This document shows positions 14,149 to 15,782 of a stretch of 64,000 nt of DNA, one piece after another. Below the pieces are notes generated by a model, which did no database searches, had not been told where the DNA came from, and saw only the letters and a list, made by a program, of their open reading frames with translations. How positions within the stretch are numbered: the stretch's first letter is position 1; every line of letters starts with the position of its first letter. Position numbers and translations under genes: made by a program. The stretch is taken from assembly GCF_056712565.1 (NCBI RefSeq), contig NZ_CM160072.1, one strand, 5' to 3'.

Positions 14149-14967
14149 ATGCGACTAGCCAGTCGTTTTGGTTATGCGAACCAGATACGCCGTGACCGTC
14201 CGCTGACACACGAAGAACTGATGCACTATGTTCCCAGTATTTTCGGTGAAGACCGGCATACTTCCCGCAGTAAACGATATGCGTACATTCCCACCATCAC
14301 CGTACTGGAAAGCCTGCAGCGGGAAGGCTTTCAGCCATTCTTCGCCTGCCAGACCCGTGTGCGCGACCCGGGCCGCCGGGGATACACAAAACACATGCTG
14401 CGTCTGCGGCGGGCCGGAGAGATAAACGGAGAACATGTCCCTGAAATCATTCTGCTCAACTCCCATGACGGTACCTCCAGCTACCAGATGCTGCCGGGTT
14501 ACTTCAGGTTCGTCTGTCAGAACGGATGCGTCTGTGGTCAGTCTCTGGGGGAAGTGCGTGTTCCGCACCGGGGAAATGTGGTGGACAGATTCATTGAAGG
14601 GGCTTACGAGGTGGTGGGCGTGTTTGACCGGATAGAGGAGAAGCATGATGCCATGCAGTCGCTGGTCCTGTCGCCACCGGCACGCCAGGCGCTGGCACAG
14701 GCGGCACTGACTTACCGTTATGGTGACGAACATCAGCCAGTCACCACCGCTGACATTCTGACACCACGACGCAGGGAGGGTTACGGTCAGGACCTGTGGA
14801 GCGCATATCAGACCATCCAGGAGAATATGCTGAAAGGCGGAATTTCCGGCCGCAGTGCAAAAGGAAAACGTATCCACACCCGTGCCATTCACAACATCGA
14901 CACCGATATTAAGCTCAACCGCGCATTGTGGGTAATGGCAGAAACGCTGCTGGAGAGCCTGCGCTGA
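14149..14967 (+). CDS. DUF932 family protein (YfjQ/YafZ-like)
   Basis: 272-aa ORF, conserved island gene family. Confidence 0.8.
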   Translation: MRLASRFGYANQIRRDRPLTHEELMHYVPSIFGEDRHTSRSKRYAYIPTITVLESLQREGFQPFFACQTRVRDPGRRGYTKHMLRLRRAGEINGEHVPEIILLNSHDGTSSYQMLPGYFRFVCQNGCVCGQSLGEVRVPHRGNVVDRFIEGAYEVVGVFDRIEEKHDAMQSLVLSPPARQALAQAALTYRYGDEHQPVTTADILTPRRREGYGQDLWSAYQTIQENMLKGGISGRSAKGKRIHTRAIHNIDTDIKLNRALWVMAETLLESLR

Positions 14968-15308
14968 TGCAGCATGTCCCTGAAAGCGTGATTCAGGCAC
15001 CAGAATCACCCGACGCCCCGGAGGCGCTGCCGGGGTGTCGTTCCATTTCTGATGATGACCTGTGCGCCTGGTGTACCCGTCTGCTTTACCGTCCCGGAGA
15101 AATCAGTCTGTGCAGACTGAGTATACAGGCAATGGCATCTGGCCATCCGTCTGTGACCGGAACGGTTACGCGTACGGCTGTCCGGAATTTCAGCCGAATA
15201 TCATTCATCCCTGATATTACCGGGTCATCACGGTCAGTGATGAACGTGATGTTGCCAGCTCCCGACCTTTACTCCCTCTCATTTATTCACATTACAAGGA
15301 TTTCATAC

Positions 15309-15782
15309 ATGAAAACATTGTCTCAGAACACCACCTCTTCGGCCTGTGCACCGGAGACTGACCTGCAAAAACTGGTAGCCACTCCCGTCCCTGATGAACG
15401 GCGCATCAGCTTCTGGCCGCAGCACTTTGGCCTCATTCCACAGTGGGTGACCCTGGAGCCCCGTATCTTCGGCTGGATGGACCGTCTGTGTGAAGACTAC
15501 TGCGGTGGTATCTGGAATCTGTACACCCTGAACAACGGCGGGGCATTTATGGCACCCGAACCGGATGACGATGATGACGAAACATGGGTACTGTTCAATG
15601 CCATGAACGGTAACCGCGCTGAAATGAGCCCGGAAGCCGCCGGCATTGCTGCCTGTCTGATGACGTACAGTCATCATGCCTGTCGTACGGAGTGTTATGC
15701 CATGACGGTCCATTATTACCGGCTGCGGGATTACGCCCTGCAGCATCCGGAATGCAGCGCCATTATGCGCATCATCGACTGA
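15309..15782 (+). CDS. Antirestriction protein (KlcA/ArdB family; YfjX/YafX-like)
   Basis: 157 aa from MKTLSQNTTS...; conserved ...NGGAFMAPEPD...AEMSPEAAGIAACLMTYSHHACRTE...; upstream in-frame extension to 14928 probably not translated. Confidence 0.8.
   Translation: MKTLSQNTTSSACAPETDLQKLVATPVPDERRISFWPQHFGLIPQWVTLEPRIFGWMDRLCEDYCGGIWNLYTLNNGGAFMAPEPDDDDDETWVLFNAMNGNRAEMSPEAAGIAACLMTYSHHACRTECYAMTVHYYRLRDYALQHPECSAIMRIID

Follow-up and report, generated by a model that had tools for sequence, protein, structure and literature searches.

Upstream of an antirestriction gene, in the 64,000-nucleotide stretch of DNA analysed here (contig NZ_CM160072.1 of RefSeq assembly GCF_056712565.1; hereafter the window), the reading frame remains open well beyond the conserved start codon, back past the stop codon of the preceding DUF932 gene. 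What does this additional open frame represent? An earlier note on this DNA, made from its sequence, had considered two answers: either a small protein or an N-terminal extension of the antirestriction protein is produced here by translational coupling, or a DUF905-type gene normally found at this place has decayed.

The open frame and its flanking genes

The DUF932 gene occupies positions 14149-14967 of the window (plus strand, like all the genes of the block described below) and encodes 272 aa. Its product (14149-14964) matches PF06067 with E = 3.3e-52, and its RefSeq relatives are annotated as DUF932 domain-containing proteins. The stop codon TGA, read from the sequence, lies at 14965-14967 and shares its A with an ATG at 14967-14969, which creates a TGATG arrangement at 14965-14969; a GGAG motif (14952-14955) is found 11 nt upstream of this ATG. 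The frame of the antirestriction gene is bounded by a TAA at 14910-14912 on its upstream side and by the TGA at 15780-15782 at its end, and is open from 14913 onwards. The first listed start codon is a GTG at 14928, 127 codons upstream of the ATG of the MKTLSQ start (15309-15311). From the ATG at 14967, the whole ORF comprises 271 codons, of which 114 (14967-15308) precede the MKTLSQ start. The open frame and the TGATG overlap at 14967 reported in the earlier note were therefore borne out by direct reading of the sequence. A 284-aa ORF on the minus strand (14155-15009) is antisense to the whole DUF932 gene and is most likely a shadow ORF.

Downstream, the 157-aa product starting at ATG 15309 (15309-15782) matches PF03230 (Antirestrict; E = 2.3e-37, 127.5 bits for a cut-off of 25) over its residues 62-157. 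This protein is intact and colinear with its counterparts at two intact loci (L002 and L003, see below), and the exact 157-aa sequence is present on at least 1000 contigs under the name 'antirestriction protein'. Judged by this profile match, it is a clear member of the ArdB/KlcA type, like YafX and YfjX (LfgA) of K-12, and its gene has a Shine-Dalgarno sequence of its own (AAGGA, 15296-15300, 8 nt before the ATG). Unlike the window ORF, PF03230 members, including those of 25 related loci, have no 114-residue N-terminal extension. The next gene in this conserved block, whose order is kept in related loci, is a RadC-like JAB-domain gene (15798-16274; PF04002, E = 3.3e-44).

A small gene broken by one indel and joined to its neighbour by a second

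A megablast search with positions 14900-15400 against 5,426 complete E. coli genomes retrieved the region in 2,931 of them, and in some of these PGAP calls a "hypothetical protein" between the DUF932 and antirestriction genes. In L002 and L003, an 81-aa ORF begins at the same DUF932-overlapping ATG and terminates with a TGA located 94 nt before the antirestriction ATG. When aligned with these two loci, the window differs by exactly two indels, of +2 and +1, plus a few substitutions. The first (alignment columns 183-184) is a duplication of TA after codon 52, with TATA at 15122-15125 instead of the ancestral TA (window, GAGTATACAGG; intact loci, GAGTACAGG), and causes a frameshift. The second (alignment column 288) is a single additional A at 15227, inside the spacer between the two genes.

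Using the 81-aa protein as a tblastn query, residues 1-52 were found at 14967-15122 (98% identity) and residues 53-81 at 15125-15211 (100% identity), in different frames. By this search and the alignment, codons 1-52 of the small gene are in their native frame at 14967-15122, and codons 53-81 with their TGA (15125-15214, the TGA being at 15212-15214) are out of frame with their own start; the tail of the gene is visible as the end of an ORF at 15062-15214. The small gene and its antirestriction neighbour share one frame in the intact loci, with the TGA equivalent to window 15212-15214 between them. The +2 shift reads past this stop and, as two and one make three, the additional A at 15227 restores the antirestriction frame, so that the shifted frame enters the antirestriction gene in register. 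Where the TA insertion is present alone, the products (P0042 and P0050) have 90 aa and end in ...GSHGQ, their stop being a TGA within the spacer; the fusion thus requires both indels. Another E. coli product of 82 aa (P0006) combines the TA insertion with a nearby compensating indel that brings the frame back before ...NGYAYGCPEF; its residue C71 is regained and its W58-P59 segment is scrambled.

How surprising is the absence of stop codons in the extension? No stop is expected in its first 52 codons, as these belong to native coding sequence. The last 62 codons (15123-15308) remain stop-free in 6% of shuffles, and of all stretches of 62 codons taken from the window in its six frames, 18-23% are open, so that this run is also unremarkable. 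The former intergenic spacer (15215-15308), which carries the AAGGA of the antirestriction gene, has an ordinary RNA fold (z = 0.16) and no Rfam match, and promoter and terminator scans of the region revealed no promoter-like site in the spacer and nothing that explains the region.

The intact gene belongs to a conserved family of Cys-rich proteins

The intact E. coli form of 81 aa, which is encoded in CP4-like islands, is known in RefSeq as a "hypothetical protein" (WP_001164966.1 and WP_000680586.1). The window shares with these genes the TGATG start and the flanking genes, but differs from them by the 2-bp insertion, through which the stop is bypassed and the ORF enters the antirestriction gene. 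A search of 5.8 billion proteins returned 184 relatives at E <= 0.01, and a profile search of 1.84 billion representative proteins returned 319 clusters. Full-length relatives of 80-87 aa, with 53-64% identity, occur in Enterobacter, Citrobacter, Klebsiella, Salmonella, Yersinia, Mixta and others, and a scan with one genome per species identified 28 loci, which belong to about 20 Enterobacterales genera. These related loci keep the order DUF905-DUF932-small gene-antirestriction-RadC with hardly any variation, DUF905 being present 5' of DUF932 in 15 of the 28. As in the window, the start of the small gene and the DUF932 stop overlap, as TGATG or TAATG, in 25 of 31 related loci. Moreover, at every intact locus the small ORF is closed by a stop ahead of the antirestriction gene. 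Stops in this frame, which the earlier note had named as the observation that would speak against its proposals, are therefore present in homologous islands, and such an in-frame stop, 94 nt before MKTLSQ, argues against an N-terminal extension of the antirestriction protein.

The intact small gene is under purifying selection: for 19 intact genes (Nei-Gojobori), pN/pS is 0.25 in the core (residues 22-73), with pS near saturation at about 0.66. The N- and C-terminal tails are variable, with pN/pS values of 0.58 and 0.75, respectively. A terminator-like element, a GC-rich hairpin of 11 pairs with a T-rich stretch behind it, is located at 15011-15040, in the poorly conserved N-terminal part of the gene. 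Some relatives, of 55-90 aa, contain the core of about 50 residues alone, and larger ones, of 170-290 aa, carry it at one end or the other; the core follows the pattern S-I-S-D-D-D-L-C-x-x-C ... Y-x-P-G-E-x-S-x-C ... W-P ... D-G-Y ... C. In 79 diverse members, D29, D30, D31, C33, C36, S47, C49 and C71 are invariant, and S28, Y41, P43, G44, W58, P59 and Y67 are nearly so. The four invariant cysteines (C-x2-C ... C ... C) suggest a small metal-binding (zinc) domain. The AF2 model of the small protein has a pLDDT of 87.4. Among the longer relatives, a 232-aa metagenomic protein (P0143) carries the Cys-rich domain twice in tandem, and others of 170-290 aa, with no Pfam match, carry it at their N- or C-terminus.

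Known families gave no counterpart. Pfam returned no family for the 114-aa extension or for the intact 81-aa protein, and NCBIfam and PHROGs, like Pfam, gave nothing informative for the extension, the 81-aa protein and the distant or multidomain relatives. A sequence-profile search of the PDB with the small protein family yielded no match, the neighbourhoods of three distant relatives consist just of arrays of unannotated small genes, and a search of the literature on DUF932 with antirestriction genes, yeeS, yeeT and Ag43 found nothing on the small gene.

Against this background, the window copy can be placed. Its N-terminal core (R-S-I-S-D-D-D-L-C-x-W-C ... Y-R-P-G-E-x-S-L-C) is in frame with the start, and its residues 25-49 show no difference from the intact E. 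coli protein. The C-terminal core (W58-P59 ... G66-Y67 ... C71) is out of frame, and the copy has neither the length of 80-87 aa nor the stop of the full-length members. It is therefore a pseudogene of this small protein family and not an intact member. Since the frameshift removes W58, P59, Y67 and the fourth invariant cysteine, C71, the small protein encoded in the window is, to judge from these residues, most probably inactive. The small protein that the earlier note had imagined to be coupled at 14967 is thus half retained: an 81-aa gene does start there, but in the window its reading frame is shifted beyond codon 52.

The window copy lies in a decaying island

The small gene is not the only damaged element in this region. 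The DUF905 remnant 5' of DUF932 (13800-13994; PF06006 match at 13800-13991, E = 1.3e-14), truncated or frameshifted, covers only positions 2-46 of the 70 of the profile and lies directly after the Ag43 terminator. The same gene in E. coli strain 7/2 is annotated by PGAP as 'DUF905 family protein, frameshifted'. The CbtA toxin gene is truncated in the window (about 17179-17277) and is described as 'missing C-terminus' in strain 7/2. The ORF of the CbeA/YeeU antitoxin (16613-17089) is open for 36 codons 5' of the start chosen by PGAP (a GTG at about 16721). The locus of strain 7/2 (L001) is otherwise nearly identical to the window, yet a 2-bp deletion, at the equivalent of window 15487-15488, frameshifts its antirestriction gene.

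Other E. coli copies of the small gene have had different fates. In strain SCU-106 (L044, about 1568-1737), an independent lesion combines an internal deletion with the loss of the start codon; in strain N-01 (L043, 1566-1811), the 81-aa copy is intact and left unannotated by PGAP. We describe the surroundings of the window copy as a degenerate CP4-like chromosomal island in which the small gene is dispensable, because other copies decay differently and the neighbouring genes are decayed too. Compensating frameshifts in decaying prophages and islands are generally known to create ORF fusions. The window follows the same course, with indels that sum to three and remove a stop, and with decayed neighbours; unlike such fusions in general, its allele is unusually widespread, being carried by about a quarter of complete E. 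coli genomes.

Distribution of the alleles and origin of the fusion

Each indel was typed in the 5,426 complete E. coli genomes with megablast queries of 44 to 46 bp centred on it; with so short a query, megablast is unable to seed across the alternative allele. Taken as lower bounds, as SNPs can break seeds, the counts for the junction with the TA insertion are 1,781 places in 1,570 genomes, and for the junction without it 2,327 places in 1,811 genomes; the junction with the extra A is found at 1,641 places in 1,408 genomes and that without it at 2,309 places in 1,798 genomes. The allele with the TA insertion alone is far rarer than the double-indel allele, with about 140 places against about 1,641. 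The fused allele is thus carried by about 1,400 of the 5,426 genomes, the two indels mostly occurring together, and copies of the frameshift allele are at least 99% identical to each other. PGAP annotates nothing under the frameshifted copies, neither a gene nor a pseudogene, and public gene calls made from them are truncated or fused products. The exact 271-aa fusion is annotated in a few GenBank records (six contigs), as 'yafX1' or as hypothetical.

Very probably, then, positions 14967-15214 are a pseudogenised small gene, whose remnant has by accident been joined in frame to the antirestriction gene. This is the ordinary explanation: a common decayed allele and not a designed extension. The intact gene would normally be translated by termination-reinitiation coupling at the TGATG of the DUF932 stop. 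After the TA duplication that follows codon 52, the conserved C-terminal half with W58, P59, Y67 and C71 is no longer made; the shifted frame happens to be free of stops, and the A at 15227 aligns it with the frame of the antirestriction gene. The antirestriction protein would still be expected from its own Shine-Dalgarno sequence and ATG 15309, and a long fusion product, if any, would be a by-product, with an extension that presumably has no function. What counts against the pseudogene is that the fused allele is very common and its indels mostly paired, a pairing that could reflect selection for the fusion rather than the hitch-hiking of one island lineage.

We may wonder at this stage whether the fusion is functional. 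Ribosomes coupled to DUF932 would then start at 14967 and make a 271-aa form, with its 114-residue extension, beside the 157-aa form, and the pair of indels would be kept by selection. The continuity of the ORF, the excess of the double-indel allele over the TA-only allele and the 271-aa annotations in GenBank are all in line with this. However, 62 of the 114 extension residues are read out of frame or from formerly intergenic DNA and have no homologue or domain, and the chance probability of such a 62-codon open run is 0.06-0.2. The fusion is absent from other genera, where the stop is present at every intact locus; the near identity of the allele copies fits a single origin spread by descent; and the antirestriction gene retains its own Shine-Dalgarno sequence and start. 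Moreover, the frameshift in the antirestriction gene of the near-identical strain 7/2 points to relaxed selection on the block. A functional fusion is therefore improbable.

Still less probable, and by a wide margin an outside chance, is a programmed frameshift at the TA duplication, in which a -1 slip would yield the full small protein with one additional residue. Both halves of the gene are indeed undamaged in adjacent frames, but there is no slippery heptamer of the X XXY YYZ type around 15110-15130 (CTGAGTATACAGGC), none having been found when it was sought at the frame junction CTGAGTATACAGGCAATGG. No stimulatory structure was detected downstream, the sole hairpin (15011-15040) being upstream. 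In addition, PGAP calls no gene here, public calls are truncated or fused, and other copies carry unrelated lesions.

The decayed DUF905-type gene of the earlier note has the precedent of K-12, in which the DUF905 gene ykfF of CP4-6 lies directly 5' of the antirestriction gene yafX. It is nevertheless scarcely credible for the gap between DUF932 and the antirestriction gene of the window, and is refuted by the Pfam, tblastn and gene-order results: neither the extension (14967-15308) nor the intact 81-aa protein has a Pfam match, the DUF905 gene of this island type lies upstream of DUF932 (the remnant at 13800-13994, and 15 of the 28 related loci), and the Cys-rich gene plus the spacer account for the entire gap. 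Comparison with the yafZ-ykfF-yafX and yfjQ-ypjJ-yfjX regions of K-12, which that note had suggested, was uninformative, as CP4-6 and CP4-57 contain no homologue of the small gene, and the place between DUF932 and the antirestriction gene is either empty there or taken up by other genes. Finally, although indels are a common type of error, sequencing or assembly errors in the record are excluded by the allele counts, the same TA insertion being found in 1,570 and the same A in 1,408 complete genomes, and neither site lies in a homopolymer run.

Homologues on conjugative plasmids

The small protein family was found by tblastn on 1,170 plasmids, which come mainly from Klebsiella, Enterobacter and Escherichia and include 1,128 predicted conjugative plasmids; the same type of search of a phage collection gave no match to the family. 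On IncL/M (pOXA-48-type) and IncFII plasmids, the small gene is located in a block adjoining mobA and the relaxase, and its plasmid neighbours include antirestriction, ssb, Hha, DUF1380 and DUF4942 genes. In one pOXA-48-type IncL/M plasmid (NZ_CP068859.1), the homologue is a 78-aa ORF with a GTG start (4941-5177), whereas RefSeq annotates an overlapping ORF with an ATG start in another frame (4975-5190, WP_004206914.1); this call is probably in the wrong frame.

The block next to mobA and the relaxase is the leading region of these conjugative plasmids, in which establishment and anti-defence genes are known to be concentrated (Samuel et al., Nature 2024, PMC11541004); the terms DUF932, DUF1380 and zinc do not occur in this paper. 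The plasmid homologues of the small protein sit among genes like those of the leading-region sets, whereas the window copy belongs to a degenerate island of the chromosome and not to a plasmid.

Implications

For annotation, the locus is at present either left blank by PGAP or occasionally filled with a spurious 271-aa 'YafX1', and recognition of the ancestral 81-aa gene settles both cases. The by-product of this analysis is more interesting than the fusion itself, namely an undescribed family of small proteins with no counterpart in Pfam, NCBIfam, PHROGs or the PDB. This family is presumably coupled in translation to DUF932, and more than 1,100 plasmids, mostly conjugative and clinically important, carry it in their leading region, which makes the small protein a candidate establishment or anti-defence factor. 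We tentatively propose, as one rather doubtful possibility, that the intact gene founds an undescribed domain of about 50 residues with four cysteines, probably zinc-binding, borne by conjugative plasmids (including those of the pOXA-48 type) and integrative islands, and that it might serve in establishment or anti-defence soon after transfer, alongside DUF932 and ArdB/KlcA. If this were true, the loss of the gene in about 1,570 E. coli genomes would be a sign that their islands have ceased to transfer.
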